From contig OZ260662.1 of the NCBI GenBank assembly GCA_965285935.1, positions 70,246,001 to 70,310,000 of the forward strand: 64,000 nucleotides of DNA, in the 5' to 3' direction. Source of the stretch: Ophelia neglecta (taxonomy: Eukaryota). Below, piece after piece: positions 3,401 to 64,000 of the stretch (position 1 is the stretch's first letter; every line of letters starts with the position of its first letter). A program made the position numbers and the translations under genes. The notes under the pieces are model-generated. The model saw only the letters and a list, made by a program, of their open reading frames with translations, had not been told where the DNA came from and searched no databases.

Positions 3401-5968
3401 AGGTGGTCAGAATATTAATATGGTATTTAAGGCAGGTTTTTATACTGTATGCTGTAATTACCATTGCTGTTTCTTGTCATGTATTCGCATTTTATCTGAT
3501 GCAACCAGTGCATTAAATTAATTTAAATCAGAGGGTTAAATTTTAACAGACTGCTTGTACTTTTACCTAGTAGATGACCAGGAAAGCTCTGATCAGAAGG
3601 TTTTGACAATGGCTGGCTTGTATGATATTTGGCAACCAAAGGATGTAAGTTTCTGGTTTTTCAGCACCCTATTTCCGAAAAAAGTATGGGGATTTGTATT
3701 GGGCCATGTCCTCTCCTCTGCCACCATGCTACCTCCACCATGGTTTTGGCTATAGCTCTGAAACCCTTTGGCCCACAGCATCTATTTTCAACAGGTATGG
3801 TATGTAGGCATCGGAATTGTTTTGTGATAGGTGGCCCCACCCTAGTGCCTATACTTATCCATTTTAGAGCAATATGGTGACAAAAGCTCATTTACAAGTT
3901 GCTCAAAAAGTATTAGAGTAGGCTGAATTGTACTAGGAGGATGCGCTATAGGCTTTTTACTTTAACTGATCAACTTTTGAAATCTGAATATAAATAGTTA
4001 TAAAAAGTCATATTTTTTGCTTTTCTCAATTCTTGCCATTTCATGCAATTTCAAGTGTTTTTTTTTTGGGGGGGAGGGCGGGTCTCAAACTTTTTTTTGG
4101 CAAAATGTACAAAAGTTTTATTTTTCATCCCATTTCATGTGATATCCATTGTTTGGAGGGAAGAAAAATATTGGGGGGGGGGGGATGTCTGTATCTGGGA
4201 CCCATTTTTGTTTTGACTATGCCAGGAGTGATTTTGCAACAGACCAGTTAATTATCCCTTTCAAATGGTGGGGGGCTTGCATTTCTAAACGCTTTGTTGC
4301 TTGTTAACCTGTCAGATATCATTCATTTGAATAGTTCATTAAAATGTCTTTTACATATACATGTATATGGCAACAAGTGATATGTGTATTTATAAATTGT
4401 ATCCAGGGTGGTGCTCCTTTATACAGCTACTCTATCATCACCGTTGATGCCCACAAGAAAATATCTTGGCTTCACCATAGAATGCCAGTAAGTATTGTGC
4501 TTTGTCTTAACTTTCTGTGATACATTTCCATTAAAATTGTTTAATCTAATTATGTATATGTAAAATTGATATGGATTATTCTTCACATACTGGTGAACAA
4601 AACTATGACATTTCATTGTCTAGTAACACTAAAAATAGCACATAGATAGAAAATGTGCAGATTCTTAAGTCAGACATTTTGAAAAAATTAATACTTAATA
4701 ATTTGTCGTCTAGTCTATGTAGTATTATTATAAGATATTAAACAACAACAAAAAACTCTTCTTAAATATAATAACCCTTTAGACACAGGGATGTCATGCA
4801 ACCAGTAATGATAATTTGAATTTTGGACAGTGTAGATTTTTTTCAGGCGATTCTAAATGGGGAAAAGGAAGTCAATGAATGGCTAGACTCTGGAACTGTG
4901 CCATTGTCAAAGGTAACTGAACTACATGATACTAGCATTGTGTTTATCAACCAGAATTGCTCACAAGCTTTTGCCATACCCCCAATTTTCAATGACAAAA
5001 GAAATATAAGGGCATTAAAACCACATTCTTGGAATTTGTAATGACCCTATCCTTTTTCCCAATATTGGGAGCATGTGAGAAACTGTAGGCTGTAATTCTA
5101 ATGGTGCCCATGAGTTTGAACATTGGTCTGCCCCTTGTAAGTCAAATGAAAAACAATACTTGTGTCCTTTATTTCAGCAAGTAGAGCAAAGATTATGTAC
5201 TTGAATAAATTTCAAGCATAATTTTACACGCAACACACAACATGGCATGGTTCTACAAATATTAATTTTTTCAGGCAGTAAAGCTGATTAGGTCACGTGA
5301 CTGTATACAGCAGCACCCAGTGTCCACTGTGGTCAATTCTTCCAGGAACAAAACCCCAGACTGCATTAAACCTATTGACTTAGAGTAAGTACAGTGCATG
5401 TATATGTAATGAACCTATACTGCTAATAAATTTGACCGTGACTATATTTTTAAAGGAAAAGGTTAATTTATCCATATCCTATTTATCCCAAGTGCTCTCA
5501 TGATCTAATGATTTACAGTGTGTGTACATGAAGCCTAGCTTAGAGCTTGTTTGAATGTTGCCACAACTCCAAGGTGCCTGCAAGCCAGGTTTGCTGCTGC
5601 CTCACTCTGTCTAGGTTCAACTAATTTCATGAAAGATATTTTATTCTTGTTGCATCTGCATGTTATGAAATGGAAATTTACTTCCCTCAAACTAGTCTAA
5701 AACCATATTTAAACTGTATGATTTGCAACAGTCTCAACTGATATTCTTAGTGATATACTCAGGGGTCCAAGCCAGGCTAACATAACTTTGAAGTTTAACC
5801 ATTACCATGCAAACTTATTACTAAAACAGGTTTTTTTCATGCAGGAAACAAAAGAGGAAAGCGCAAGCCAGTAGTAATCTGATGAAAGCTTGGCTTAGTA
5901 AGGGGACAAAGAGGCCATCAGATAAGGAGGAGAAAGACACCCCGAACAAAAAACCCAAGCACACATAG
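473..5968 (+). CDS. HMCES: Abasic-site processing protein HMCES (SRAP domain), 9 coding exons, ~328 aa
   Basis: Exons read with GT-AG boundaries and matching phases: 473-492, 1674-1811, 2431-2682, 3093-3214, 3571(or 3574)-3644, 4407-4487, 4847-4912, 5275-5384, 5845-5968 (987 nt, TAG). Translation has the SRAP hallmarks: MCGRTAC (catalytic Cys2), SYNIAPGSHTPV, MHWGLVPHW, NARSD, RCVILCEGYFEW, KQPYYI, MAGLYDIW, YSYSIITVDA, WLHHRMPAIL, HPVSTVVNSSRN and C-terminal LMKAWL. Confidence 0.96.
3269..3447. mobile_element. Degenerate Tc1/mariner-type MITE in HMCES intron
   Basis: TA-CAGT...ACTG-TA termini with internal repeated GGTGGTC/GGTCTG motifs; a related partial copy is at ~37248-37420. Confidence 0.5.
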
Positions 5969-6555: not shown

Positions 6556-9008
6556 ATCATTTCATTTTTCATTTAATCAGTATAATCAATGTTGATAATT
6601 GCACATTGTATTGCTTATTAAAATATCAACTACAAAAGTAGTCTCTCCAAGTTTAGTACAGTTATAACAACACTAGTGACTCATCAGTCACTATTAAAGG
6701 CAGGAGAGAAAAAAACATCCTCCCTCACGGCTGCACTCTCTCTTCTCTTCTTCCCACCTGGTCTCCTCCCCATCTTCTACTCTGGCCCCTCCTTCTTCCT
6801 TCTACCCCTTCCCATCCATCCCCTCACCTCTCCAAGAATGTGTCTCAAACTCATCAGAGAATTATGATGTCATGGTGACATCCTCTGCATTTACTGGACA
6901 TTGAACACTCCAGTATAAGACGGAAGTTGTAGAACATATTTTCCCTCCACACAACAGGTATTTGTTCCTTTGGCCCAAGCATGTTGGGAAACAGTTTTTA
7001 TAATGTCTGAGAACCAGTAAATACCTTATGCACCCACTTGCCAGAAGTATTGCAATGAAGGCTGCCATGAAACCGTATGTAATAATATGGCAACTTATTT
7101 CACTGTTTAGATATATGTTTGTGTCCTAGCTACCCCCCCCCCCCCCCCCCCCCCGTCATGCAAACGTTAAGAAGTACATGTTGCGTCGGGAGTCAAACAG
7201 ATATCAAGGTTTATATAATCAAACATTTGGCTTTTGGATTTGTCAAAGTACTTTGTTGTGTACTTGTGGTAAATTTTGATTTCAAGTGTTTGGATTTGCC
7301 AAACAAACGGGTAAAAAAGGCAAATAAGTACATATGCAATAAAAATATTGCTAAAAATTTGCACCTCATTGTGTCTATTATTCTCTTCAAAGATTGGTGA
7401 ATATCACTTTCTGTTAATGTTCTGGTTAAGTATTAAGTATTTTGTTGCCTAACTCCATCTCACTTTGTCATAAAGGTGTATTTTGCAGACTGTGGTAGTC
7501 AGAATCCAAGCAAATGTAGCTCCTTAATTGTTAAACAAGAGATTGTAAAAAAAAAATTGTTTGCTATTTTTTTTCTAAATTTATGCTTGTCCCTGGTCTA
7601 ATATAATCCCAAAAAGCGGCTATTAAATTGTCATTAGGTACGGGATAGTTGATCACTCTTTCCATTAAACATGCATGTACCTCAACAGTTTTGTCTGTGA
7701 AGTTAATTCTAAATTTATGGAATCCACATAATTCAATGAATCCATTCAATAATACCCGACAATTTCCCCTTGTCATACTAGTTTCGTGTGGTGGGATCTT
7801 TTAAGTTGCCATGCCTGCTACAAAGCGGCCGTTGAAGCACCTTTCAATGTGGACGGGTCACATATTGTATACATACACCACTGCGCAGGTATACCGGAAT
7901 TTAAGCATCCATATTGGTCAAGCATTTAAAATCTGGATTGATCAGCCTTTAATAGGTAGTAATTTTATCCACCCTGGTGGATCATAATTCTTCAAGGCCG
8001 CATTATTGAATTGAAAGCAAACTCAGGACGTTTAACTGGAAGACAATGGAATAAAAGGGGTCGGATTTACTCCAAGGATCACACCAGGGAAATATCAAAC
8101 TGTAACGGAAGAATTGCTCCATGCGGATCAGAAATATGTCTGTAAGCGGTGGTAAGTTCTTTTAATTTACCTACTCCATGCCAATGCATACAATGTCGTG
8201 TTGTGTACATGTTCATTCGAATCATTTCTACTGTAACAAGGGGAACCAATTCCTCGCAGCTTGGAGTCAGGTAGGCCTTGATCATTAGGCCTATGGTAGA
8301 ATATAAAGAGTGCGTCAAAAGCCTCCTCACCATTACATAAGAACCACCATTTTACCCACCGGCGAAATCTACCTAAATCATTTTCCACTTCAAATCATCA
8401 TCGGCCAGGTTGTACCGGTTGAATTATTCTCCTATGTTTTCGGCCTTATTTTTTAGTGCCTCAACTGAAAATGGCCACCATAATATAATCAACATTCGGG
8501 GGGAAATTTCAAATAAACAAGGGAATTCGCGCCTTATTGTGAGATCGTTTAAATTAATGATCGGCCAAATCAGTCAGGTCGCATTAAAATCCGCCAAATT
8601 CGTTGATAACAACAGGATTGCGTATACATATTTGAAATTGTGATTTTACGTTTTACGTATCCCATCCATTTGGGATAAAGTTATTTCAGTCTAAGCTAAG
8701 GTGCTATTCGTGTATGATTTCGCTAATATACATGTATTTGTAATCCAGAGCGTCAAGAGTTAACTGCTCGTATGGCCATGATTGTTCCACATCATTGCTG
8801 ATCAGGTATCTTTGTGCAGAGCGTGTACACAGCCTCAAGTTGTTCTCAGCATGACAGTTGCATATAAGCAGTACTCATTAAAGTAGAGTTGTTTGCTTGC
8901 CACTTCAAAGACAATGACTTCTAGAATGGAAACCTAGCTTTATAGTAACGGTTCATTTGTAACAAAGTGGATACTAAGTGGCCCGTCGAGGCATTGACTT
9001 TCTCTAAG

Positions 9009-12000
9009 GAAAGTGCCGAGAGCCAGCAGTGTTTGTAGGCCTACTCGCGATATTTGCTGCGCGTAGCTCGAGCTTTAGATCCAATGGTAACAATCTCTAA
9101 GCAAAGGGTTTTTTTTACCAAATCTCGCAAATCAAGCTTTACTCCTGGCAAGGGTCTGTTTTTCACACTAAATAGCTGATTTTCAGAATAAAAATGTAAG
9201 TAGAAGATTTCAGTATGAAAATGCAAGTAGAAGAACAGTGTAATCTCCTTGATATGTATATAGTGTTGCTATAGGAAAGGCAGTCCTCTCCTGGTATGTT
9301 TTCATACTAAGGATGTTTTTGTCACATTTCCCTAACTAATGGTATCCCTTTTTCGCTAGCCAGTGATATGGGTACGAAACCTGCTGCTGCAAAATGTTGA
9401 AAAGTACCTGAAATTTTAATATAATCAACTGCTTTCTAGGCCAAAGGTGTTTTTGTTCTTGTTCCATGCTATATTTGAAATAAGGACTGCAAAGATGTCT
9501 GTTTGTTTTATGTTGTTTCAATTCATATCAAAATATTTGAAATTATTGACTTAAGTGACAAATTTTATATTGTTTAATCATACAAGGTCTTTAAATGTCT
9601 ACATAATTTTTAATTATCTTTTTAATTTTTTTCATTTGTTTTTAAAATTTAATAATATCAGCCTGTATATATGTTTTACCACTTGATTATAATCTTGGAA
9701 TATTAACTAGGTCTACCTTTCTTTTGCAGGTCAAAAGTATTGGGCTGCTGTCGCAGTTTTGCAGGAAAGTATTATGATTTAACTTTGTTGTCTTTGGTCT
9801 TTTCGTTGCGCGTTATTTATATTAATTTGATGATAAGAGCCATATTTAAGGGCAATATTGTCCCGAGTCTATTCTATAGTTTAAAATTTGCTCCGCATAT
9901 TACTATGATTTATGAATTTAATTTTACCAGCTGATATTCATGTTATATGTGTTTTTGGTTTTTCATCATAGCTTTCAAATAAACTATCAATTCTTTTATT
10001 GGTATAAATTCCTCACATTGATATCATCATTATGAGCTTTGAACTATTCAGTTTAACAATTACCATATTTATTATCATTTATGCTTGTTTAATTGTTGTA
10101 AAGCTCATCGGGAGGAAGTTTTAAACTATTGAATACAGTGGGGCAAATATCAAAAAAACCTTTGCTTAAATATATTATTAAAATAAATAATACGTAATGA
10201 AGAGACCAAAGACAACAAAGTGATATTTTTCCACCATTGCCATATTAAAAGCTGGTGTCTTGTCATTTATTTGAATAATTTCTTGATATTGATATCATCA
10301 TTTTAACCTTTAAATGATTCAGATTAGCAATTTTTGTATTATTCTATCATTTCTGCTTGATTATTCGTATATAACCTTCTATACTATAAATATAATGTGT
10401 TACTTTGATATTACCAGCTGATTTCCATGTTATATCTGTGCTAGGTTTGTTTTATCATTGGTTTCAAAAAAGATAGTATTTATTGTCCAATTGATTAACA
10501 TTTTATATTGAATTATCTATTAAGTATAATATTGAATACTATTTAATGTTAATAAGGATTTGAACATTCATATATTTTTTTACAATTATTAGATGGTTCA
10601 AATATTTTCAAAGGGTCTAGCATTTCATGTGCATTTAATTGTAACAATTAAGACTAGGAAAATCCACCTTACTTTTGTGGTGTCCAAGGTGATTTCGCCA
10701 CCCTTTGATTGCAGGCAAGTATTTCGCTTTTGATTTCATTGTCATTAGTATTTTTTTTTAAACTTAGTTCTTAGTTTAAGCTCATATTTTTTCGTAGTTT
10801 TATTTAATTTTAGCTTCTTGAACTATTTAATTATCTTAAAGTACCTCACATTTTTATTATAATTAGGGTTCGAATAAAACCAGCTGATTTCTAGTTCTTA
10901 GGGGTTCTTAGTTCTTGTTCCATGTTATCTTTGAAATAAGAACTGTAAAGATGTCTGTTTGTTTTAATTTGTTTAAATTCATATCAAAATATTTGAAATT
11001 ATTGACATAAATAACCATTTTTATAATGTTTGTCATACCAGTTATCTTAATATCTACATTGTTTTTGTTGGCGATTCTATTTTGTATTTCCTTTTAAAAT
11101 TTACTTACATCGGCTTGTTTATTTGTTTTACCACCTAATGTGCCTTGATTGTAATCATGGAATATTAACAATGTCTACCTCTCTTTTGCAGGTCAAAAGT
11201 CTTGGGCTGCTGTCGGAGTTTAGCTGGAAAGTATCATGATTTTACTTTGTTGTCTTTGGTTTTTTGGTTGCGAATTTTTTATTTTAATTTGATAAATATA
11301 GCCTTTTCTTAGAGCAATATTGTGCCCAGTCTATTCTATAGTTTAAAGTTTTCTCCGCTTATTTCTGTGATTTATGACGTTAATTTCACCAGCTGATATG
11401 CATGTTATATATGTTTTATGTTTTTTCCATCATAGCTTTCAAATAAACTATCAATTCTTTTATTGGTATAAATTCTTCACATTAATATCATCATTATAAG
11501 CTTTGAACTATTCAGTTTAACAATTACCATATTTATTATCATTTATGCTTGTTTAATTGTTTTAAAGCTCATCGGGAGGAAGTTTTAAACTATTGAATAC
11601 AGTGGGGCAAATATCAAAAAAACCTTTGCTTAAATATATTATTAAAATAAATAATACGTAATGAAGAGACCAAAGACAAAAAAGTGATATTTTTCCACCA
11701 TTGCCATATTACAAGCTGGTGTCTTGTCATTTATTTGAATAATTTCTTGATATTGATATCATCATTTTAACCTATAAATGATTCAGTTTAGCAATTTTTG
11801 TATTATTCTATCATTTCTGCTTGATTATTCGTATATAACCTTCTATACTATAAATATAATGTGTTACTTTGATATTACCAGCTGATTTCCATGTTATATC
11901 TGTGTTAGGTTTGTTTTATCATTGGTTTCAAAAAAGATAGTATTTATTGTCCAATTGATTAACATTTTATATTGAATTATCTATTAAGTATAATATTGTA

Positions 12001-15000
12001 TACTATTTAATGTTAATAAGGATTTGAACATTCATATAATTTTTTACATATATTAGATTGTTGAAATATTGTCAAAGGGTGTAGCATTTCATGTGCATTT
12101 AATTGTAATAATTTAGACTAGGAAATTCCACCTTACTTTTGCGGTGTCCAAGGTGATTTCGACACCCTTTGATTGCAGGCAAGTATTTCGCTTTTGATTT
12201 CATTGTCATTGGTATTTTACTTTAAACTTAGTACTTAATTTAAGCTCATATTTTTTCGTAGTTTTATTTTAATTTTAGATTCTTGAACTATTTAATTATC
12301 TTAAAGTACCTCACATTTTTATTATAATTAGGGTTCGAAAAAAACCAGCTGATTTCTAGTTTATATGGGTTCTTAGTTCTTGTTCTATGTTATCTTTGAA
12401 ATAAGAACTGTAAAGATGTCTGTTTGTTTTAATTTTGTTTAAATTCATATCAAAATATTTGAAATTAATGACCTAAATGACCATTTTTATAATGTTTGTC
12501 ATACCAGTTATCTTAATATCTACATTGTTTTTGTTGGCGATTCTATTTTGTATTTCCTTTTAAAATTTACTTACATCGGCTTGTTTCTTTGTTTTACCAC
12601 TTAATGTGCCTTGATTGTAATCATGGAATATTAACAATGTCTACCTCTCTTTTGCAGGTCAAAAGTCTTGGGCTGCTGTCGGAGTTTAGCTGGAAAGTAT
12701 CATGATTTTACTTTGTTGTCTTTGGTTTTTTGGTTGCGAATTATTTATTTTAATTTGATAAATATAGCCTTTTCTTAGAGCAATATTGTGCCCAGTCTAT
12801 TCTATAGTTTGAAGTTTTCTCCGCTTATTTCTGTGATTTATGACGTTGATTTCACCAGCTGATATGCATGTTATATATGTTTTATGTTTTTTCCATCATA
12901 GCTTTCAAATAAACTATCAATTCCTTTATTGGTATAAATTCTTCACATTGATATCATCATTATAAGCTTTGAACTATTCAGTTTAACAATTACCATATTT
13001 ATTATCATTTATGCTTGTTTAATTGTTTTAAAACTCATCGGGAGGAAGTTTTAAACTATTGAATACAGTGGGGCAAATATCAAAAAAACCTTTGCTTAAA
13101 TATATTATTAAAATAAATAATACGTAATGAAGAGACCAAAGACAACAAAGTGATATTTTTCCACCATTGCCATATTACAAGCTGGTGTCTTGTCATTTTT
13201 TTGAATAATTTCTTGATATTGATATCATCATTTTAACCTATAAATGATTCAGTTTAGCAATTTTTGTATTATTCTATCATTTCTGCTTGATTATTCGTAT
13301 ATAACCTTCTATACTATAAATATAATGTGTTACTTTGATATTACCAGCTGATTTCCATGTTATATCTGTGTTAGGTTTGTTTTATCATTGGTTTCAAAAA
13401 AGATAGTATTTATTGTCCAATTGATTAACATTTTATATTGAATTATCTATTAAGTATAATATTGAATACTATTTAATGTTAATAAGGATTTGAACATTCA
13501 TATAATTTTTTACATATATTAGATTGTTGAAATATTGTCAAAGGGTGTAGCATTTCATGTGCATTTAATTGTAATAATTTAGACTAGGAAAATCCACCTT
13601 ACTTTTGCGGTGTCCAAGGTGATTTCGACACCCTTTGATTGCAGGCAAGTATTTCGCTTTTGATTTCATTGTCATTGGTATTTTTTTTAAACTAAGTACT
13701 TAATTTAAGCTCGCATTTTTTCGTAGTTTTATTTTAATTTTAGATTCTTGAACTATTTAATTATCTTTAAGTACCTCACATTTTTATTATAATTAGGGTT
13801 CGAATAAAACCAGCTGATTTCTAGTTTATAGGGGTTCTTAGTTCTTGTTCCATGTTATCTTTGAAATAAGAACTGTAAAGATGTCTGTTTGTTTTAATTT
13901 GTTTAAATTCATATGAAAATATTTAAAATTATTGACCTAAATAACCATTTTTATAATGTTTGTCATACCAGTTATCTTAATATCTACATTGTTTTTGTTG
14001 GCGATTCTATTTTGTAATTCCTTTTAAAATTTACTTACATCGGCTTGTTTATTTGTTTTACCACTTAATGTGCCTTGATTGTAATCATGGAATATTAACA
14101 ATGTCTACCTCTCTTTTGCAGGTCAAAAGTCTTCGGCTGCTGTCGGAGTTTAGCTGGAAAGTATCATGATTTTACTTTGTTGTCTTTGGTTTTTTGGTTG
14201 CGAATTTTTTATTTTAATTTGATAAATATAGCCTTTTCTTAGAGCAATATTGTGCCCAGTCTATTCTATAGTTTAAAGTTTTCTCCGCTTATTTCTGTGA
14301 TTTATGACGTTAATTTCACCAGCTGATATGCATGTTATATATGTTTTATGTTTTTTCCATCATAGCTTTCAAATAAACTATCAATTCTTTTATTGGTATA
14401 AATTCTTCACATTAATATCATCATTATAAGCTTTGAACTATTCAGTTTAACAATTACCATATTTATTATCATTTATGCTTGTTTAATTGTTTTAAAGCTC
14501 ATCGGGAGGAAGTTTTAAACTATTGAATACAGTGGGGCAAATATCAAAAAACCTTTGCTTAAATATATTATTAAAATAAATAATACGTAATGATGAGACC
14601 AAAGACAACAAAGTGATATTTTTCCACCATTGCCATATTACAAGCTGGTGTCTTGTCATTTATTTGAATAATTTCTTGATATTGATATCATCATTTTAAC
14701 CTATAAATGATTCAGTTTAGCAATTTTTGTATTATTCTATCATTTCTGCTTGATTATTCGTATATAACCTTCTATACTATAAATATAATGTGTTACTTTG
14801 ATATTACCAGCTGATTTCCATGTTATATCTGTGTTAGGTTTGTTTTATCATTGGTTTCAAAAAAGATAGTATTAATTGTCCAATTGATTAACATTTTATA
14901 TTGAATTATCTATTAAGTATAATATTGAATACTATTTAATGTTAATAAGGATTTGAACATTCATATAATTTTTTACATATATTAGATTGTTGAAATATTG

Positions 15001-18000
15001 TCAAAGGGTGTAGCATTTCATGTGCATTTAATTGTAATAATTTAGACTAGGAAAATCCACCTTACTTTTGCGGTGTCCAAGGTGATTTCGACACCCTTTG
15101 ATTGCAGGCAAGTATTTCGCTTTTGATTTCATTGTCATTGGTATTTTTTTTAAACTTAGTACTTAATTTAAGCTCATATTTTTTCGTAGTTTTATTTTAA
15201 TTTTAGATTCTTGAACTATTTAATTATCTTAAAGTACCTCACATTTTTATTATAATTAGGGTTCGAATAAAACCAGCTGATTTCTAGTTTATAGGGGTTC
15301 TTAGTTCTTGTTCCACGTTATCTTTGAAATAAGAACTGTAAAGATGTCTGTTTGTTTTAATTTGTTTAAATTAATATCAAAATATTTGAAATTATTGACC
15401 TAAATAACCATTTTTATAATGTTTGTCATACCAGTTATCTTAATATCTACATTGTTTTTGTTGACGATTCTATTTTGTAATTCCTTTTAAAATTTACTTA
15501 CATCGGCTTGTTTATTTGTTTTACCACTTAATGTGCCTTGATTGTAATCATGGAATATTAACAATGTCTACCTTTCTTTTGCAGGTCAAAAGTCTTGGGC
15601 TGCTGTCGGAGTTTAGCTGGAAAGTATCATGATTTTACTTTGTTGTCTTTGGTTTTTTGGTTGCGAATTTTTTATTTTAATTTGATAAATATAGCCTTTT
15701 CTTAGAGCAATATTGTGCCCAGTCTATTCTATAGTTTAAAGTTTTCTCCGCTTATTTCTGTGATTTATCACGTTAATTTCACTAGCTGATATGCATGTTA
15801 TATATGTTTTATGTTTTTTCCATCATAGCTTTCAAATAAACTATCAATTCTTTTATTGGTATAAATTCTTCACATTGATATCATCATTATAAGCTTTGAA
15901 CTATTCAGTTTAACAATTACCATATTTATAAACATTTATGCTTGTTTAATTGTTTTAAAGCTCATCGGTAGGAAGTTTTAAACTATTGAATACAGTGGGG
16001 CAAAATATCAAAAAAACCTTTGCTTAAATATATTATTAAAATAAATAATACGTAATGAAGAGACCAAAGACAACAAAGTGATATTTTTTCACCATTGCCA
16101 TATTACAAGCTGGTGTCTTGTCATTTATTTGAATAATTTCTTGATATTGATATCATCATTTTAACCTATAAATGATTCAGTTTAGCAATTTTTGTATTAT
16201 TCTATCATTTCTGCTCGATTATTCATATATAACCTTCTATACTATAAATATAATGTGTTACTTTGATATTACCAGCTGATTTCCATGTTATATCTGTGTT
16301 AGGTTTGTTTTATCATTGGTTTCAAAAAAGATAGTATTTATTGTCAAATTGATTAACATTTTATATTGAATTATCTATTAAGTATAATATTGAATACTAT
16401 TTAATGTTAATAAGGATTTGAACATTCATATAATTTTTTACATATATTAGATTGTTGAAATATTGTCAAAGGGTGTAGCATTTCATGTGCATTTATTTGT
16501 AATAATTTAGACTAGGAAAATCCACCTTACTTTTGCGGTGTCCAAGGTGATTTTGACACCCTTTGATTGCAGGCAAGTATTTCGCTTTTGATTTCATTGT
16601 CATTGGTATTTTTTTTTAAACTTAGTACTTAATTTAAGCTCATATTTTTTCGTAGTTTTATTTTAATTTTAGATTCTTGATCTATTTAATTATCTTAAAG
16701 TACCTCACATTTTTATTATAATTAGGGTTCGAATAAAACCAGCTGATTTCTAGTTTATAGGGGTTCTTAGTTCTTGTTCCATGTTATCTTTGAAATAAGA
16801 ACTGTAAAGATGTCTGTTTGTTTTAATTTGTTTAAATTCATATGAAAATATTTGAAATTATTGACCTAAATAACCGTTTTTATAATGTTTGGTTTAAACA
16901 TATTTATTTTTTCTATGTTGGATCTTACAAAAGCCTATGGCTTAAAATCGGTAATTTCCAACATATCAACATACAGAACATTAGGTTAAACAGCATGCAA
17001 TGAATGAGGTGAGGTGATGGGATGAAGGGCGACATGAGGTGGATGTACATCAAGCACGCATGTATATATGAAGTGCTACAAACAGTTGAGGAAATGGAAA
17101 TATAATGTTTGTCATACCAGTTATCTTAATATCTACAATGTTTTTGTTGGCGATTCTATTTTGTAATTCCTTTTAAAATTTACTTACATCGGCTTGTTTA
17201 TTTGTTTTACCACTTAATGTGCCTTGATTGTAATCATGGAATATTAACAATGTCTACCTCTCTTTTGCAGGTCAAAAGTCTTGGGCTGCTGTCGGAGTTT
17301 AGCTGGAAAGTATCATGATTTTACTTTGTTGTCTTTGGTTTTTTGGTTGCGAATTATTTATTTTAATATGATAAATATGGCCTTTTCTTAGAGCAATATA
17401 GTGCCCAGTCTATTCTATAGTTTAAAGTTTTCTCCGCTTATTTCTGTGATTTATGACGTTAATTTCACCAGCTGATATGCATGTTATATATGTTTTATGT
17501 TTTTTCCATCATAGCTTTCAAATAAACTATCAATTCTTTTATTGGTATAAATTCTTCACATTGATATCATCATTATGAGCTTTGAAATATTCAGTTTAAC
17601 AATTACCATATTTATTATCATTTATGCTTGTTTAATTGTTGTAAAGCTCATCGGGAGGAAGTTTTAAACTATTGAATACAGTGGGGCAAATATCAAAAAA
17701 ACCTTTGCTTAAATATATTATTAAAATAAATAATACGTAATGAAGAGACCAAAGAAAACAAAGTGATATTTTTTCACCATTGCCATATTATAAGCTGGTG
17801 TCTTGTCATTTATTTGAATAATTTCTTGATATTGATATCATCATTTTAACCTATAAATGATTCAGTTTAGCAATTTTTGTATTATTCTATCATTTCTGCT
17901 TGATTATTCGTATATAACCTTGTATACTATAAATATAATGTGTTACTTTGATATTACCAGCCGATTTCCATGTTATATCTGTGTTAGGTTTGTTTTATCA

Positions 18001-21000
18001 TTGGTTTCAAAAAAGAAAGTATTTATTGTCCAATTGATTAACATTTTATATTGAATTATCTATTAAGTATAATATTGAATACTATTTAATGTTAATAAGG
18101 ATTTGAACATTCATATAATTTTTTACATATATTAGATTGTTGAAATATTGTCAAAGGGTGTAGCATTTCATGTGCATTTAATTGTAATAATTTAGACTAG
18201 GAAAATCCACCTTACTTTTGCGGTGTCCAAGGTGATTTCGACACCCTTTGATTGCAGGCAAGTATTTCGCTTTTGATTTCCTTGTCATTGGTATTTTTTT
18301 TAAACTTAGTACTTAATTTAAGCTCATATTTTTTCGTAGTTTTATTTTAATTTTAGATTCTTGATCTATTTAATTATCTTAAAGTACCTCACATTTTTAT
18401 TATAATTAGGGTTCGAATAAAACCAGCTGATTTCTAGTTTATAGGGGTTCTTAGTTCTTGTTCCATGTTATCTTTGAAATAAGAACTGTAAAGATGTCTG
18501 TTTGTTTTAATTTGTTTAAATTCATATCAAAATATTTGAAATTAATGACCTAAATGACCATTTTTATAATGTTTGTCATACCAGTTATCTTAATATCTAC
18601 ATTGTTTTTGTTGGCGATTCTATTTTGTAATTCCTTTTAAAATTTACTTACATCGGCTTGTTTATTTGTTTTACCACTTAATGTGCCTTGATTGTAATCA
18701 TGGAATATTAACAATGTCTACCTTTCTTTTGCAGGTCAAAAGTTTTGGGCTGCTGTCGGAGTTTAGCTGGAAAGTATCATGATTTTACTTTGTTGTCTTT
18801 GGTTTTTTGGTTGCGAATTATTTATTTTAATTTGATAAATATAGCCTTTTCTTAGAGCAATATTGTGCCCAGTCTATTCTATAGTTTAAAGTTTTCTCCG
18901 CTTATTTCTGTGATTTATGACGTTAATTTCACTAGCTGATATGCATGTTATATATGTTTTATGTTTTTTCCATCATAGCTTTCAAATAAACTATCAATTC
19001 TTTTATTGGTATAAATTCTTCACATTGATATCATCATTATAAGCTTTGAACTATTCAGTTTAACAATTACCATATTTATTATCATTTATGCTTGTTTAAT
19101 TGTTTTAAAGCTCATCGGTAGGAAGTTTTAAACTATTGAATACAGTGGGGCAAATATCAAAAATACCTTTGCTTAAATATATTATTAAAATAAATAATAC
19201 GTAATGAAGAGACCAAAGACAACAACGTGATATTTTTTCACCATTGCCATATTATAAGCTGGTGTCTTGTCATTTATTTGAATAATTTCTTGATATTGAT
19301 ATCATCATTTTAACCTATAAATGATTCAGTTTAGCAATTTTTGTATTATTCTATCATTTCTGCTTGATTATTCATATATAATCTTCTATACTATAAATAT
19401 AATGTGTTACTTTGATATTACCAGCTGATTTCCATGTTATATCTGTGTTAGGTTTGTTTTATCATTGGTTTCAAAAAAGATAGTATTTATTGTCCAATTG
19501 ATTAACATTTTATATTGAATTATCTATTAAGTATAATATTGAATACTATTTAATGTTAATAAGGATTTGAACATTCATATAATTTTTTACATATATTAGA
19601 TTGTTGAAATATTGTCAAAGGGTGTAGCATTTCATGTGCATTTAATTGTAATAATTTAGACTAGGAAAATCCACCTTACTTGTGCGGTGTCCAAGGTGAT
19701 TTCGACACCCTTTGATTGCAGGCAAGTATTTCGCTTTTGATTTCATTGTCATTGGTATTTTTTTTTTTAACTTAGTACTTAATTTAAGCTCATATTTTTT
19801 CGTAGTTTTATTTTAATTTTAGATTCTTGATCTATTTAATTATCTTAAAGTACCTCACATTTTTATTATAATTAGGGTTCGAATAAAACCAGCTGATTTC
19901 TAGTTTATAGGGGTTCTTAGTTCTTGTTCCATGTTATCTTTGAAATAAGAACTGTGAAGATGTCTGTTTGTTTTAATTTGTTTAAATTCATATGAAAATA
20001 TTTGAAATTATTGACCTAAATAACCATTTTTATAATGTTTGTCATACAAGTTATCTTAATATCTACATTGTTTTTGTTGGCGATTCTATTTTGTAATTCC
20101 TTTTAAAATTTACTTACATCGGCTTGTTTATTTGTTTTACCACTTAATGTGCCTTGATTGTAATCATGGAATATTAACAATGTCTACCTCTCTTTTGCAG
20201 GTCAAAAGTCTTGGGCTGCTGTCGGAGTTTAGCTGGAAAGTATCATGATTTTACTTTGTTGTCTTTGGTTTTTTGGTTGCGAATTATTTATTTTAATTTG
20301 ATAAATATAGCCTTTTCTTAGAGCAATATTGTGCCCAGTCTATTCTATAGTTTAAAGTTTTCTCCGCTTATTTCTGTGATTTATGACGTTAATTTCACCA
20401 GCTGATATGCATGTTATATATGTTTTATGTTTTTACCATCATAGCTTTCAAATAAACTATCAATTCTTTTATTGGTATAAATTCTTCACATTGATATCAT
20501 CATTATGAGCTTTGAACTATTCAGTTTAACAATTACCATATTTATTATCATTTATGCTTGTTTAATTGTTGTAAAGCTCATCGGGAGGAAGTTTTAAACT
20601 ATTGAATACAGTGGGGCAAATATCAAAAAAACCTTTGCTTAAATATATTATTAAAATAAATAATACGTAATGAAGAGACCAAAGACAACAAAGTGATATT
20701 TTTCCACCATTGCCATATTACAAGCTGGTGTCTTGTCATTTATTTGAATAATTTCTTGATATTGATATCATCATTTTAACCTATAAATGATTCAGTTTAG
20801 CAATTTTTGTATTATTCTTTCATTTCTGCTTGATTATTCTTATAAAACCTTCTATACTATAAATATAATGTGTTACTTTGATATTACCAGCTGATTCCCA
20901 TGTTATATCTGTGTAAGGTTTTGTTTTATCATTGGTTTCAAAAAAGATAGTATTTATTGTCCGATTGATTAATATTTTATATTAAATTATCTATTAAGTA

Positions 21001-23189
21001 TAATATTGAATACTATTTAATGTTAATAAGGATTTGAACATTCATATAATTTTTTACATATATTAGATGGTTAAAATATTGTCAAATGGTGTAGCATTTC
21101 AGGTGCATTTAATTTTAACAATTTAGACTAGGAAAATCCACCTTACTTTTGCGGTGTCCAAGGTGATTTCGCCACCTTTTGATTGCAGGCAAGTATTACG
21201 CTTTTGTTTTCATTGTCATTGGTATTTCTTTTAAAATTTAGTATTTAATTTAAGCTCATATTTTTTCGTAGTTTTAGTTTAATTTTGGATTCTTGAACTA
21301 TTTAGTTATCTTAAAGTACCTTACATTTTTTTATAATAAGGGTTCTAATAAAACCAGCTGATTTCTAGTTGTAAGGGGTTCTCAGTTCTTGTTCCATGTT
21401 ATCTTTGAAATAAGAACTGTAAAGATGTCTGTTTGTTTTAATTTGTTTAAATTCATATCAAAATATTTGAAATTATTGACATTAATAACAATTTTTATAT
21501 TGTTTTGTCATACCAGTTATCTTTATATCTACATTGTTTTTGTTGGCGATTCCATTTTGTTATTCCTTTTAAAATTTATTTACATCAGCTTGTTTAATTG
21601 TTTTACCCCTTTATGTGTCTTGATTGTAATCATGGAATATTAACAATGTCTACCTTTCTTTTGCAGGTCAAAAGTCTTGGGCTGCTTTCGGACTTTAGCA
21701 GGAAAGTATCATGATTTTACTTTGTTGTCTTTGGTTTTTTGGTTTCGAATTATTTATTTTAATTCGATATATATAGCCTTGTGTTAGGGCAATATTGTCC
21801 CCAGTCTATTCTATTGTTTAAAATTTCCTCCACTTATTACTGTGATTTATAACTTTAATTTCACCAGCTGATATGCATGTTATACATTATGTTTTATGTT
21901 TTTCCATCATAGCTTTCAAATAAAATATCAATTCTTTTATTGGTATAAATTCTTCACATTGATATCATCATTATAAGCTTTGAACTATTCAGTTTAACAA
22001 TAACTATATTTACTATCATTTATGCTTTTTTAATTGTTTTAAAACTCATGGGAGGAAGTTTTAAACTATTGAATAGAGTAGGGCAAATATCAAAAAACCT
22101 TTGCTTTAATATATTATTAAAATAAATAATACGTAATGAAGAGACCAAAGACAACAAAGTGAAATTTGTCAGCCATTGCTATAATATAAGCTCGTGTCTT
22201 TTCATTTATTGGTATAATTTCTTGATATTGATATCATCATTGTAACTTATAAATGATTCAGTTTAGCAATTTCTGTATTATTCTATTCATTCTGCTTGAT
22301 TATTCGTATAAAAACCTTTTGGACTTTAAATATAATGTGCTACTTTGATGTTACCAGCTGATTTTCATGTTATATCAGTGTTAGGTTTTGTTTTTTCATT
22401 AGTTTCAAATAAGATAGTATTTATTGCCCGATTGATTAATATTTTATATTGAATTATCTTTTAAGTATAATATTGAATACTATTTAATGTTAATAAGGAT
22501 TTGAACATTCATATAATTTTTTACATATATAAGATGATTACAATATTGTCAAAGGGTGTAACATTTCTTGTGCCTTTAATTTTAGCAATTTATATTATAG
22601 GAAAATCCACATTACATTTGCGGTGTCCTAGGTGATTTCGCCACCTTATGATTGCAGGCAAGTATTTCCCTTTGGTTTTTTTGTCATTGGTATTTTCTGT
22701 TTTTTAAACTTAGAATTCAGTTAAGTTTTTCGTAGTTTTATTTTAATTTTGGATTCTTGAACTGTTCAATTGTTTTAAAGTACCTCAGATTTTTGTTATA
22801 ATTAGGGTTCTAATAAAACCAGCTGATTTCTAGGTCTTAGGAGGTCTTTGTTCTTGAGGAGGTCTTTGTTCTTGTTCCATGTTATCTTTGAAATATGAAC
22901 TGTAAAGATATCTGTTTGGTTTAATTTGTTTAAATTCGTATCAAAACATTTGAAATTATTGACCTAATAAACAATTTTTATATTGTTTAATCAGACAAGT
23001 TGTTCGATTATCTGCATTGTTTTTAGTTGAATAGACTGGGGACAATATTGTCCTGTTTTGGAATTCATTTTAAATGTTTAATTGTTTTACCACTTGGTGT
23101 GCCTTGATTGTAATCTTGGAATACTGACAATGTCTACCTTTATTTTGCAGGTCAAAAGTCTTGGGCTGCTATCGGAGTTTTGCTGGAAA
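9009..23189 (+). ncRNA. Putative multi-exon spliced transcript (lncRNA or repeat-peptide gene) running through the tandem array
   Basis: Every unit keeps exon A (39 nt; polypyrimidine+cag acceptor, AAA|gtat donor) and exon B (57 nt; tag acceptor, CAG|gcaagt GC donor). Unique upstream exon-like pieces with short introns: 9009-9086, ending 9195, 9275-9293, 9360-9403. No expression data available. Confidence 0.5.
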
Positions 23190-23345
23190 GTATCACGAGT
23201 CTGTTATTATTACAATAATATACAGTATTATTATAATATTACCATCTGATGAGTGTTTTGTATTTCCATGCTATATTTTTTTTTAAAGCAACGTTTTCTA
23301 TTTATTTTAATTTGTTCAAATTCGTATCAAAATATTTAAAATTCG
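9400..23345 (+). repeat. Tandem array of ~1,464-bp units (9 full units plus partial ends)
   Basis: Anchor tttgcag|GTCAAAAGT recurs at 9730, 11192, 12658, 14122, 15585, 17271, 18735, 20201, 21667, 23151 (spacings 1462-1466, one 1686 due to an insertion, last 1484). Core units are nearly identical; terminal units are more diverged. Confidence 0.98.
16892..17100 (-). mobile_element. 5'-truncated non-LTR retroelement 3' end inserted into one array unit
   Basis: 209-bp sequence absent from the other units, flanked by an 11-bp direct repeat TATAATGTTTG (16881-16891 and 17101-17111). On the minus strand it ends with stem-loop atgttgga...tccaacat, then AATAAA and ...tttaaac. Confidence 0.8.
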
Positions 23346-23930: not shown

Positions 23931-26900
23931 TATTCATGTCTTCTGAGGAATGCAAATGCAATTCATTTCATATTTCTTAATAGTTCTTTGTACTAGCCCA
24001 TCGGATTACGCAAACAATGAAAAGATAACTCGAATTCACATTTGATAAACAATATTGTGTATTACAACAATGAATATTCATCAGGCTTACACATTCATCA
24101 ACTTTAAGATATCAAAATAATGAATTCTATGTTGTCTTTTTTTCTTTTTCACTGTTAAAAACCATTTTTGCTGGCAGCTGACGACAAGCCCTTTGCTTCA
24201 TTTTACATACAAAAACAAAAAACTTGTTACTGCCAAATCTTATAATGACTGAATATATATAAACAGTAACAATGGCTGCATTGATACCAAACACTAGGCA
24301 ATATTTTATCAGCAATTAAAAAAGGGAGGCAATTAATAAATGCAATATTAATGCATAATACAAAAAGGCTTATCAGTATTACATTTAGGTGTTCTTTACT
24401 ATGAAATTGTTTTAACATCGGACACAAAGTTCTAAGGGAATTCACAAGATAAAATGGATACATATATACTTCACATATAAGAATTAAAAGCATGCCACAA
24501 AATATTGTCTAAATAAACACACATGGCGACATGTGATTTGTCTAGCTTCTTTATCGCATCAGTACACCACATTGGCAGGAATAATAAATATTACAAAATG
24601 ATTAACCTTTACCCTATCAGTGACATCTGATAGTAAAAGGGTTAAATTCCTTGCAAAGATAAAATCAAGTTATCATATCACCATTGCTTTAATCACCTTC
24701 TGCGCCTTTACTTGAACCATTTAATACACCTGGATATCTACATCAGATACAGGATAAAAAGAAACACCCAACAACTTTTAAATTACATGTTTATCCACAT
24801 ACATGATATCTTCTGTTACTCAAAAAAAAGTTCTGAAAATAACAGGAGTATTGTTACTTCAAAACTGTGTCTTTCAGATGTGCACTTCTTTATCTATGAT
24901 TATAATATTAGAACCTTTATATAATATGATTGAAACTTTTATGATTAACCTACATTTATATAATGATATATCTACATGAATATATAATAAGCTGCACAGA
25001 AAGATGTGGTTATAGGTCACCTGATAGGTGCTCTAAGAGGTCACATGCCTGCAATAGCTACTTGGTAATCAACTGCTCAGAGTGGATCTCTGGCAAGACC
25101 ATGAAACTAAATGTAAATGCAGAGATGAAATTATTTATTTCTAGAAGAAAAACAAACATGATAAAGACAATATGGACAGGGAGAGAGAGTGCCAACTTAC
25201 CTGAGCATGTAAAATAATTCCACTTCATATCTCTTCCAGTTGCAACAACAACAAAACATTAAGCAAACTAATGAGGACATTGATCTCACTGATCAACTTT
25301 AAGCAAGGGAGAGGTAATCATTTCAGACAGACTCCATGCTTGTGACCCTCAATGTGTACCCTTTGTATTAAATTCACATAGTTTATACATTCAGTGTAAT
25401 GAACTCTGATTGGTCATTTGGCCCTTGACTTTCAATTTATTAAACTCTCATTGGGACCCTTTTATTTCTCTCCTGCAGCCAACTTACAAATTATGAAAAG
25501 CTGCCTGCATTGTGCTAGAAATAAACATTTTATTACTACACATTTGAGATAAAAGTCTGGAATGCAAGACTTATTTCTGTATTGGCATATACTACCTGTA
25601 TTAATAAAGCAAGACATATGCACTTTTGTAATTGTCTCCTGCAAAATTAAGTGAAGATTAACAACAAGTTTATTGTCTGGTGCAGCATGTACACAATCTT
25701 TCCTATTAGCTATTCTAATAACCCTTAAATAAACCAATAAACCGACAATTACCATTTTCTTCTCTGTAAAAGATTGCCAGTCTTTGTATATGATTGTTAA
25801 TAAACTTAACAGATAATTAAATATAATCCTAACACGAAAATTGTCTACTGAAGTACATCAGGTCATTAAGAAATTATAAACCAAGTAAAATACTGGTAAA
25901 CAGGAATCCCATCTACCTTAAATAGTAGCATCATTATTTAAATACAAATATTTCAATTGAAACCTTGCAGATGAAAGGTAAGCAAATCATAATTAACTAC
26001 ATGTTACTTGAAAACAACCTTGAGGAAATAATGGTGCTGCAAATCTTACATTTGTTTCACAGAAGGTCGGTTTTAAACAGCTTTATGAATCAAGAAACAT
26101 ACCCAACTACTTTTAAAAGCAAGCACATTAAGGAATGAAAACCATTGTCACTCTGGGCTACTACTAGATGTGTTAAGCAGAAAACACTAGTTAATTATAC
26201 AGGGTTGTCCAAACAGTGTTCTTAGAGGTATAACTTATATATATATATAATAGTAGTATATTCCTAATATTTACATAATACTCTTGCTGAACATTTAAAG
26301 TACATTATATCATTAATCAGTTGTTCTGGACCCAAATGTGACACCAGCAAAATTCTATAGATCATTTTTTGCAAGGGGATACTTAATGATTTGGCCACCT
26401 TACCCCATTACATGGCATACCTTGTAAACCATAACTTGAACTAATCAAATGCACTTATTATGCATTTTCATTGTAAATTAAATAGTATTTTACTCTTATC
26501 TATAGGCAACGTTTACAGCATTGCTATAGATAAGCTCATAGTGCACACTACAATCTTCTTGTTCCTTAGTTCCACTTGTGCCTGTTTTCGCACTTTTTAA
26601 CAATAATAATCACAACCATAGCCAAAACAAATGAGGGACACAGCTGGGGGATATTAAGGCAAATTGCCTAGGAACCAAAGCAGTTTACAACTAAATTTAG
26701 ATACATGTCATCCACACTTGCTGGGGCTTGAAGTCTTGCTTGTTTGATAAGAAAATCATGCCAGGGACTTTCAAAATGTGGTGTGCACTCACAAGGCCAG
26801 GCCTCCCTATTAAGAATATGGTATTACATCAAACAGCCTCATACACAATGCCATGTATAATTATTGTATATGCAGCAACTGGTAATGAAATTTTACATCC

Positions 26901-27034
26901 ATTTGTATATCAAAACAAACACCCACAATGATGTGAAATCCATCTTAGAGCGACTCACTTGTTACAAAATATTGTAATAAAGAGCTTTTCCAGTAAAAAA
27001 GCAGTTTAAGATCAGTAAGAATTGTTGGCAGCAC

Positions 27035-30000
27035 CTACTGTGCTTTGGCATTGAGTCTTCCCTGTTTGGCGTTACCAATATTTGTTCGCTGTATTATGTA
27101 TGGCCAGAGACTGCTTGGCAATGAAACAGGTGATGTCTCTTCACTGTTAGTGTTGTCCCTGTGTACAAATACAAGAATATTATTAGCCACAGGAATGTAG
27201 ATAATTCAGCTTCAAATGTCAAGAAGTATTTGTGTTTGAAAGGAAACATGTAAGCCTATATGGAAATACTTTGATAGAAACAATGAAAGAATGTAATTTA
27301 ATATGATAATGTTAATACCACAAATAAAAAGGAAAGCAAAATTGATATGCTTTATTTATTAAATGAAAGATTTCATCTTAAAAGATAAAATGTGTGAAGG
27401 AAGCAAACAAAAGATTTGGTCTTGTGATCCTCAAAAATTCCCGAATAAATCCATCGCAAGATTGACTGTAGGGTATTGTGTGACTAGTGGTCGTGATTGG
27501 CAACCATTGTGATATCAATCCTGGTGACCTGTGACCAATCATACTTTTAATCTAACCCTACAACTGCTCACACAATCAGCCAAAGCCCAGTAGTGGCAAT
27601 GCCCTCCTGAAGTGCCCCCCAACCTCCCTCTCCTATTCTCGCATCCGGTTGGCATATTTGCTATACAATGACTACCTCTGAATCCAGGCACACCCAGAAT
27701 TGTGCTTTCTTCTCTTCTTGTTCTTGTTTATCTGCCGGAACAGTACAGTGGCGACAAGAGCACTCAGCTCTTGTTGTTGCTCCCTTTGCAGCCTGACCAA
27801 CATGAGATAAAGTCTTTTTGGTGGCACTGGTGCATATGCTATAGCAATCCTCTTTGGGGTTGAAGTGCACAGTGACTTTAACTCCATGGCTTGCTCTATA
27901 TATTCCATGGGGGCTACCTAGGGAAATTTGGGAATATGAGGGTTATGGTTGGAATTTGAGGAATATGACAGGTGGCCCCACCTAACGGCAGGTGGCACAT
28001 CCAGTTGCACAACTAATCGTGCAACTGTTTCACCTGCGATCATGCAAGACTAGTGTTACGACCATGCAAGACTGTCTACAATTTGGAACTCCCAGGTCAG
28101 AAATTTTGAACATGACCAACTATGCTGCAACTGATTTTGCTTTGGCAAACCTCCACTACCTCCCGGACCAGGCTCCACTCTATTTACAACATCTAATGAT
28201 TTGAGCAGTTTTTGGTTGCAATCAGTTGTGTCTGGTGTGGCTGTGGCTGTAGAAATATATATGTACAAATATCAGTCAAAACTCAAAAATAACAGAATAG
28301 GTCATCTTACCATATAACAGTTTGTGTATCTTCTGTAGAGCATTCCATCTGGGCATCAATGCTGTACAGGTTGATTCTCATGGAATCCTGGCAGGCAGCT
28401 GGGCCCAGGAGGGAAGCCTTGTTGAAGAGGTCATTGGCCATCCAAAAGCTTGGCATACGAGGATACATGTCCCCATTGTCCTCTGGCATATGAAACCCTA
28501 GCAGTTGAAGCAATTTGAGAAAGTGCTTGTTCTTAAGCCATCAGACTGAATTCTGTAAAGGCAACCAGTGGTAGGGACTTCCCCAGTGCTGAAAAATATT
28601 GGATAGAATTAAATGAGGTTAAATATGAAACCCTCTACCATGGCTAGCCATTAAAAGCCATAAGAAATTAAAAGAGATTAAAAGCCAGTGAGTCCTCACT
28701 GTCTCGCATCGTATCAATTGATTGTCTGAGGAGCAGTGTTCTCAGTTTACACACTGTTGCTTTGCCCTCTCTTGTCTTTTCTCTTTTTAACCTTTTGGTT
28801 TCTCAGGATAATCAATTGAACACATAATATATTTGCAAAACACTTCAAAACAAAGAAAGAAAGACAGGGTAAACCTCTGCAATGTTCCTCATCTAAAACC
28901 AACAGTTATAATGATTTCTTGAGTCTAAGATCTATGTATTGTTTCTGTTGCCTGCCTTACCAAGATACCCATAAAACTATTCTCAAGGTGAAGCTAATAA
29001 CCAAGTTTCACATAATCATTTTCAAAGAAAATAGGCTAATACACTGAACCATAAAGCTCCAGCTAGATGTAAATGTATGAAACTGATGGCTAGACTGGCA
29101 AAAGCAAGTGGCTCATTCTAGTCTCACAACTGCAACTCAATAAGGTGCAAGAATTGTGGTTAACTAAAGGTTCTCAATGTAGTTCTGTGCTCTAGCGCTT
29201 AAAACAAATGCAGAAATAATTATTTTTGTGGTTTGACCTTGAAAATGACACCAAGGTAAAATTTGAAAACAAATTTGATAAAATGACCAAGATTTTCTTT
29301 CCCAAGGTGTTCCAATGCTGACCTAGGTTGTAACTATTAAACTGAAAGCAGACATCTTGCATATAATGATGTGACCTTGAACTGAAACATCAAGGTCAAG
29401 TGATAACTTGATAAGATCCCCAAAGAGAAAACCTGATAAGAACCCCAAAATAATCATTTCTATTGGCTTCCAGTGTTGATCTAGGTGTTAGTTGTTAAGT
29501 TAAAGGCAGAAATCCTAAATATGGTATTGTGACCTTTAAAATGGACATCAACAGCAAATTTGAGAACAATATAAGACAACCAAATATGCATTTCTATAGA
29601 TTTCCAATAATGATCTGGATTCTAGCTGTTAAATCACGATATAAGTGATTTGACTTTGAAAAGAGACACCAAGATCAAATTTAAGAACTCGGTAAAACAC
29701 ACAAAATATGCAAATCTATAACCTGCCAATGTTGATCTAGGTTCTATCTCCTATAAACAGAGTTGAAATCTTGATTGTAGTAATTTGACCTTGAAAATGG
29801 ACCCCAAGATCAGATTGATAAATTGATTTTATGCATAAGATATGATTTCTTATAGAATCACAATGCTGATCTTTGTTCTAACAGCTAAAGCTAAAATCTT
29901 GAATTTTATTGATCACACCTTGAGGATTAGGCCAAGGTTAATGAATGATGCCACAGGAATACTTAAATTATTCAGTCAATTGCTCAATTTAACTCCAACT

Positions 30001-45701: not shown

Positions 45702-46013
45702 CTAATCCTTTAAGTAAACAAGCTGCCATATTGGGACTGCAGGGACTACTTTTCTGAGGTTAAGAAATATTTTGACAAGCCATGGTAATTGACAACTGGC
45801 TAGTTTTACTTTGACAAGTCTTTGCTGTTCCTCGAATGGAGGTAGTGGAGCACGTAGTTCAAGCTGTGACACTACGATGTCACATCTAGGATATCCCTGA
45901 AAACCAACCAAAAAACCCTCTTCCTCTGTCACATCTTTTATTCTTGCGTTTGACCACCTCCCCAACTCATCCACGGCCTGCACCCTACTTCCAACAATGA
46001 ATACTCCTGCCAT
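45702..46013 (-). CDS. Orphan Tudor/chromo-barrel-like ORF (probably a first coding exon or gene fragment)
   Basis: aaaATGG start at 46013; MAGVFIVGSRVQAVDELGRWSNARIKDVTEEEGFLVGFQGYPRCDIVVSQLELR fits the royal-family pattern F.VG..V.A.D..G.W..A.I......V.F.GY...D..V....LR; candidate acceptor ttaaccttcttccggtag before 46081. No downstream exons identified. Confidence 0.5.
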   Translation of the reverse strand: MAGVFIVGSRVQAVDELGRWSNARIKDVTEEEGFLVGFQGYPRCDIVVSQLELRAPLPPFEEQQRLVKVKLASCQLPWLVKIFLNLRKVVPAVPIWQLVYLKD

Positions 46014-63980: not shown

Positions 63981-64000
63981 GTAGGTTACATCAACGATAT

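Follow-up and report, generated by a model that had tools for sequence, protein, structure and literature searches.

The window analysed here, a stretch of 64,000 nucleotides at C2:70,246,001-70,310,000 in an animal genome of 762 Mb, contains a tandem array that we discuss as the possible body of a spliced non-coding RNA gene. The array (9414..23343 on the + strand) has the end of an HMCES/SRAP gene (+) on one side and, on the other, the 3' end of timeless (-), and consists of nine full 1.46-kb units with partial units at its ends. Units are 1462-1484 nt long, with a GC content of 25%, and are T-rich on the + strand. The core units are mutually 97.9-98.7% alike, and the similarity falls to about 96% in unit 8, 93-94% in unit 1 and 88-90% in unit 9. 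The head-to-tail joint between units is also found in contigs of three public sequencing runs, one of which may be the source of the assembly.

Each unit contains two short blocks that an initial annotation of this DNA had described as exons. Block A, of 39 nt, is present in ten copies (the first at 9730..9768, the others starting at 11192, 12658, 14122, 15585, 17271, 18735, 20201, 21667 and 23151), and block B, of 57 nt, in nine (the first at 10658..10714, the others starting at 12122, 13588, 15051, 16516, 18201, 19665, 21132 and 22601), all on the + strand. Every A is preceded by TTTTGCAG and followed by GTAT (10/10), and every B is preceded by TAG and followed by GCAAGT (9/9), so that the counts, positions and flanks given by the initial annotation all stand. 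It was also right that A and B are the GC-richest parts of an AT-rich unit, as they contain its two GC-richest 40-nt windows (49% and 46%, against 25%). The absence of indels from A and B, which it had emphasized, is real but not more than chance would give: none of 22 indel runs falls in the blocks where 1.5 would be expected (P ~0.23), and indel-free windows are also common in the spacers (55% of 39-nt and 45% of 57-nt windows).

Upstream of the array, at 7691..8220 (+), lies a region that is 69-85% identical to the region preceding the arrays at three other loci, C2:67.84, 68.74 and 73.71 Mb. The observed/expected CpG ratio is 0.60-0.97 at 7501-9000, compared with 0.0-0.24 in the upstream gene body. 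The similarity between the four loci and the CpG content suggest that this is likely the promoter and first exon of the family. A canonical donor, GTG/GTAAGT (8149..8157 on the + strand, intron from 8152; here and below the slash marks a splice boundary), with a score of 7.6 and a U1 duplex of -9.1 kcal/mol, likely ends exon 1. An alternative donor at 8271 occurs in the window only.

A low-copy family with a conserved GC donor

Searches of the genome's DNA with the unit and with the upstream region, in which locus counts are lower bounds, returned related loci at C2:66.61, 66.96, 67.82-67.84, 68.74-68.75 and 73.71 Mb and at C1:57.67 Mb, with 65-77% identity. The family is low-copy, consisting of five loci on one chromosome arm and two fragments; there are at least seven loci in all, six of them on one chromosome within 7.1 Mb. 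The initial annotation had proposed such a search, and had held that a known dispersed transposable element would speak against a gene. The paralogous loci were found, and a dispersed element is ruled out by their small number and their clustering on C2 (at least seven loci, against 325 candidates for a 209-bp insert that lies within the same array). A Helitron-type or other element was rejected because the window and its paralogues have no common 3' end and the copy number is low. A pattern match at C2:72.28 Mb proved unrelated, and a pattern scan of metagenomes gave no matches.

The extent of amplification differs among the loci. At C2:67.82 Mb a stretch of 21 kb contains 25 B modules and a single A, at C2:68.74 Mb there are 14 B modules over 11 kb, at C2:73.71 Mb one A and one B, and at C2:66.96 Mb, which is without the 5' region, three recognisable B modules. 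Each large array has a CpG-rich 5' region in front of it, in one and the same orientation, and the paralogues contain higher-order repeats (3307 and 1607 bp). The nine modules of the window form a clade (support 0.99), as do the 25 modules of C2:67.82 Mb (support 1.00); those of C2:68.74 and C2:66.96 Mb are not resolved as clades. Because the window and C2:67.82 Mb modules fall in separate clades, amplification of the module behind a common head happened at least twice, independently at no fewer than these two loci.

The loci at C2:66.96, 67.82 and 68.74 Mb are moreover segmental duplicates of one another: they have in common 1.8 kb of upstream sequence and a block of 0.7-1.3 kb downstream with an EF-hand exon on the other strand. 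The window locus has neither of these blocks. At the C2:66.96 Mb member, LINE-like reading frames occupy the place expected for the 5' region.

The best conserved part of the module is its GC donor, CAG followed by GCAAGTAT (10712..10722 in the first unit, on the + strand), with introns starting at 10715, 12179, 13645, 15108, 16573, 18258, 19722, 21189 and 22658. It is preceded by TT at -6/-5 and by YAG, and can also be read as an acceptor. In an alignment of 465 nt around the donor, made from 16 of the 52 modules picked for divergence (mean identity 67%), the 11 columns that pair with U1 required nine parsimony steps where 28.8 are expected for their base make-up, and the donor ranks as the best conserved of 447 windows (P 0.0018). 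Conservation beyond the donor is down to background from about +9, and weaker conserved windows are found in the body of B (P 0.014) and in the tract before the donor (P 0.025). The C at +2 is invariant in the 16 modules, as are 5% of all C columns, and GCAAGT is intact in 50 of the 52. Because the modules had first been gathered by a donor-like motif, the collection was repeated with a profile of the upstream spacer only. With this donor-blind profile, 49 of 54 full-length module matches keep the donor; of the five that do not, two lie in the locus without a 5' region, two are last modules and one is a partial duplicate. The GC splice donor of the modules is thus conserved far beyond chance, and the conservation that the initial annotation had noticed within one array extends to the paralogues.

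Against the 5' end of the genome's own U1, the donor pairs at 10 of 11 bases (-9.3 kcal/mol), which is stronger than 17 of 20 ordinary donors and amounts to the near-perfect pairing by which a GC-AG intron of the U2 type is recognized. A variant U1 fitted to GC donors was considered and rejected, as the 5' end is the standard one in every U1 gene read (12, out of 42 matches). A large tandem cluster of U1 snRNA genes, with a spacing of about 1356 bp, lies at C5:105.66-106.54 Mb. GC donors have been described as enriched among lncRNAs (long non-coding RNAs; PMC7242645), and U1 motifs as retaining lncRNAs on chromatin (10.1101/310433).

Blocks A and B: origin, splice strength and possible products

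A profile built from the B regions alone is collinear with all five A regions (E 7e-13 to 5e-6), and none of 1000 shuffles reaches the lowest A score. A and B are therefore two descendants of one ancestral exon. Their losses are complementary, A having kept the acceptor and lost the GC donor, and B having kept the GC donor and lost the acceptor. The A acceptor corresponds to a site inside B at which GG has replaced AG both in the window and at C2:67.82 Mb, and the ancestral internal AG persists at that offset in 5 of the 52 B modules. The end of A corresponds to the position of the B donor, and none of the five A regions retains the GC. In the A acceptor, seven bases are the same at four loci (background invariance 32%), and the length of A up to the matching GT varies by locus, at 39, 35, 43 and 34 nt.

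Splice strength was scored with a matrix derived from three genes in the vicinity (23 acceptors, 22 donors). Within a unit, the B donor ranks first of 115 GT/GC sites and the A acceptor fourth of 52 AGs. No true donor scores as low as the A donor, which ranks 45th of 115; the B acceptor is 28th of 52, and its conservation is not significant (P 0.10). The initial annotation's statement that all blocks keep their splice signals hence holds for the strong B donor and A acceptor and fails for the weak A donor and B acceptor. Its exon-intron-exon-intron cassette becomes doubtful with these two weak sites, the homology of A and B with their complementary losses, and the varying length of A, and the window array is probably not a cassette of two micro-exons. 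Because the A donor and B acceptor score poorly, one GC-AG intron per unit is likelier than two micro-exons. It would run from the B donor to the next A acceptor (10715..11191 on the + strand for the first), and the simplest reading of the window unit, judged by these ranks and the A/B homology, would be one 477-nt GC-AG intron and one 985-nt exon.

Rfam returned nothing at gathering thresholds on the window, with one chance match at E 1.3. A box C/D search of representative units, taken from five loci, gave no exact box C and one weak C-like/D pair at one locus, H/ACA RNAs not being covered by the search. A 90-nt scan of one unit from each of three loci found no microRNA-like hairpin (best z -2.5 on the + strand), and no consensus structure was found around B. 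Coding tests on 30 of the 32 distinct B sequences, with two irregular B modules left out, gave no significant coding signal in B or A, the joined repeat peptide not having been searched against protein libraries.

Interpretation of the array

U1 sites are able to suppress poly(A) signals, and the array has 27 AATAAA hexamers on its + strand, in 13.5 kb. We tentatively favour, with somewhat less than even confidence, the hypothesis of a small gene family, with a common 5' region and with GC-donor modules amplified independently in its members, in which the array forms the repeated body of one gene, likely for a spliced non-coding RNA. Polymerase II would start within the 5' region, and exon 1 would end at 8151 and be joined to the first A acceptor. 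As the A donor is dead or weak, the following exon, of about 985 nt, would begin at A and extend through B, at whose end U1 would bind the GC donor and the 477-nt intron up to the next A would be removed. The A-B pair would have been multiplied by unequal crossing-over. The property under selection would likely be a strong U1 site every 0.6-1.5 kb, which could protect a long AU-rich RNA from cutting at its many poly(A) signals and hold it in the nucleus, the product being a nuclear RNA and not a protein. The initial annotation had argued for an internally amplified spliced gene as opposed to an inert satellite. Its cassette apart, the low copy number, the paralogues with their shared 5' region and the conserved donor make the feature better supported as a gene than that annotation could show.

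Several observations weigh against this hypothesis. Inside the array, the exon blocks change as fast as the spacers (0.205 substitutions per column in A and 0.175 in B, against 0.194 in the spacer), the 985-nt exon and the intron have the same composition (T 44% vs 47%), and mutations show no significant asymmetry of the kind expected for a transcribed + strand (ratios 1.36 and 1.44; P 0.13). The exon-1 donor is intact in two of four loci (the window and C2:67.84 Mb) and altered at C2:68.74 and 73.71 Mb. Three family members look decayed, and a damaged -1 donor base in a C2:68.74 Mb module has been amplified three times. At C2:67.82 and 68.74 Mb it is B alone that is repeated, which makes the one-intron model impossible there; in these arrays the acceptor would be either a weak AG upstream, present in 45 of 52 modules, or the AG immediately next to the donor. 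The depth of repeat contigs relative to flanking contigs varies by run (about 10-13, 4-6 and 2-2.5 fold, all in one study, depth not being copy number), a weak hint of 2 to 10 or more core units across runs. As for methods, we selected the 16 aligned modules out of 52, columns count as independent in the tests, the splice matrix comprises 45 sites called by eye or homology, and the roles invoked for U1 come from mammalian work or general background.

The cassette of the initial annotation, in which A and B are both micro-exons with two introns per unit and a 96-nt ladder, perhaps in a host transcript that releases intronic RNA, appears unlikely. It would fit the AG at -57/-60 in 45 of 52 B modules, the mild conservation of the B body, the GC-rich islands formed by A and B, and a CAGCTG motif that is the second-best conserved window; the genome also has true acceptors as weak as that of B (5 of 23 score <=0.4) and a roquin donor of the AAA/GTAT type. 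Set against these are the A donor, which ranks below all true donors and is the remnant of the lost GC donor, the poor and not significantly conserved B acceptor, and the absence of an Rfam match, an exact box C or a microRNA-like hairpin in the units searched. Doubtful to much the same degree is that we are looking at a relic, in which pieces of a once-spliced gene have turned into local satellites, so that donor conservation would record past selection on arrays that are now inert. The lack of constraint inside the array, the satellite-typical profile with diverged ends and higher-order repeats at the paralogues, the decayed members and the depth differences between runs, as a weak hint of copy-number variation, are all consistent with it; however, the donor stayed conserved on the long branches that lead separately to three arrays, after the ancestral acceptor was lost, and the large arrays each still stand behind the CpG-rich 5' region in the same orientation. 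We regard as very improbable a fast-evolving repeat protein, in which A and B would encode a 32-residue cysteine-containing repeat. The numbers 39, 57 and 60 can all be divided by three, one frame contains no stop in 25 of the 30 distinct B sequences or across eight A-B units, its pN/pS is 0.66 compared with 0.87-1.24 in the five other frames, and an ATG at 8209, present in the window only, could enter that frame through the donor at 8271. However, the synonymous excess is not significant (P 0.10-0.16) and stops are not avoided; the shared exon 1 contains no ATG in that frame and differs between loci by frame-shifting indels; there is no shared start codon; and the A blocks of other loci have lengths that do not divide by three, the one at C2:67.84 Mb having a stop in the needed frame.

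The end of B could instead be a composite AG/GC site, acting as a zero-length ratchet point or as an unspliced landing site for U1, with the array being one long intron or a nuclear RNA handled stepwise, a possibility that we consider decidedly unlikely. In 14 of 16 modules no AG within 75 nt makes a better acceptor than the one adjoining the donor; in whole units this AG ranks 1/52, 1/27 and 2/26, and scores of the tract alone resemble true acceptors and not ordinary exon ends. A tract, TT at -6/-5 and YAG do stand before the donor, as at recursive sites: YAG is present in 47 of 52 modules and TT in 50 of 52 (both exceptions are in the headless locus), whereas among ordinary sites TT occurs at 1 of 20 donors and 11 of 23 acceptors. 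TT at these positions marks 196 of 197 fly ratchet points as reported (10.1101/006163). The conserved tract and the unchanging C at +2 would also agree with such a site, and it would account for the arrays that repeat B alone. On the other side, ratchet points are described as AG/GT, in introns mostly >10 kb (PMC13149111, PMC6110457), whereas the core here is AG/GC with a spacing of 0.6-1.5 kb. A ratchet step would remove the CAG in front of the GC donor; with 44% T on the strand, tracts are common and the score lies near the 85-90th percentile of the array; and the 52 modules derive from few ancestors and are not independent, their rank coming partly from CAG/G itself. Its fullest form, a non-coding gene family whose bodies are tandem AG/GC ratchet ladders, with a U1-coated AU-rich transcript of 10-21 kb removed stepwise until almost no exon is left, seems more improbable still. 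If true, it would mean recursive splicing that uses GC donors, in ladders produced through satellite-like amplification at several loci. We found no description of such a family or of AG/GC ratchet arrays in the literature covered, which leaves out most subscription papers.

Other features of the window and comparison with known systems

A motif containing CAGCTG (10413..10422, +) occurs three times per unit, with first copies at 9926, 10413 and 10879 and 24 exact hexamers in the array. It may resemble a bHLH site; its conservation has a P of 0.054 after correction, and it is broken in most C2:68.74 Mb copies. Just behind A, once per unit, lies an inverted duplication (9777..10221, +; arms about 9777-9916 and 10111-10221, 72% alike), whose second copy folds at -109.8 kcal/mol (z -6.4). 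Its transition mismatches on the + strand favour G-U over A-C (8:1, 12:1 and 5:1 in units 1, 3 and 9; P 0.04, 0.003 and 0.22), a hint that + may be the RNA strand. A hairpin RNA (endo-siRNA) gene was rejected, as the duplication occurs only in the window array, a long well-paired repeat is not kept in all members, and non-wobble mismatches are many (26-32 per stem). Unit 5 carries the 209-bp insert mentioned above, a young mobile element (16892..17100, strand not assigned) with an 11-bp target duplication (16881-16891 and 17101-17111), inside the predicted intron. All 40 scored of its 325 candidates in the genome are full copies, 96-100% identical, and some copies have a second partial match 150-280 bp away.

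Among the neighbours, the HMCES/SRAP-domain gene (1674-5968, +) has eight exons in one open frame, with its own 5' end upstream of 1674. The Timeless-domain gene (24000-35950, -) has two very large exons, open for 470 and 420 codons, and the CpG-poor stretch from it to about 24 kb may be a long 3' untranslated region converging on the array end. A Roquin gene (55402-64000, +) has almost no pyrimidine tract at several acceptors. An open frame of 139 codons at 45702-46121 (-) resembles a coding exon and has no Pfam match. By eye, 52390-53150 has a GC-richer core between two long inverted-repeat-like arms, possibly a non-autonomous DNA transposon, and a similar pair of arms lies at about 53330-53900.

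Rat Bsr and primate C19MC belong, with SNHG14, to the non-coding host genes made of tandem units; the units of all three carry snoRNA or microRNA, and none was found here in the searches described above. Like the SNHG14 host gene of SNORD116-115, the array would have one promoter (here predicted) and tandem non-coding exon-intron units (10.1101/305557; PMC3413130), and would yield a spliced RNA kept in the nucleus (again predicted), with lineage-specific amplification (10.1101/305557). It differs from such genes in its repeated GC donor and in a family amplified separately at several loci. The IR1 repeat of Epstein-Barr virus, with exons W1 and W2, two small exons and two introns per unit in variable number (10.1101/176099), has the architecture of the initial annotation. 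It is, however, viral and protein-coding, with a promoter per unit and known intronic RNAs (10.1101/176099), whereas here there is one shared 5' region and no coding signal was found in the tests of A and B. GC-AG introns of lncRNAs likewise place a GC donor in a probable non-coding gene, but as described they are mostly single, weak and often first (PMC7242645), and here a near-perfect U1 match is repeated 9 to 25 times. Zero-nucleotide recursive sites share the acceptor abutting a donor, the TT at -6/-5 and a conservation peak on the site (10.1101/006163, PMC6110457, PMC13149111, 10.64898/2026.09.10.750672). The known ones are AG/GT in long introns of coding genes (10.1101/006163, PMC6110457, PMC13149111), unlike a spacing of 0.6-1.5 kb produced by tandem amplification, and AG/GC is named only as a motif kept out of controls (10.64898/2026.09.10.750672).

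By analogy, the array may work like the mammalian tandem non-coding host genes and be laid out like the viral W1-W2 repeat, although it did not pass the defining tests of either. If it is transcribed, DNA that could be masked as satellite would be a gene selected for its splice site alone, with neither a protein nor a small RNA conserved. The paralogues (A-B pairs, B only, a single module, headless) make up a natural series on the role of a 5' splice site in non-coding RNA, which bears on why GC is kept over GT and how splice partners are reassigned after the loss of an acceptor. Satellite DNA with higher-order repeats has a homogenised core, diverged ends, locus-specific clades and higher-order units, as do the arrays of this family; unlike satellite DNA, however, these combine a strand-specific splice site under apparent selection with a promoter-like head shared between loci.

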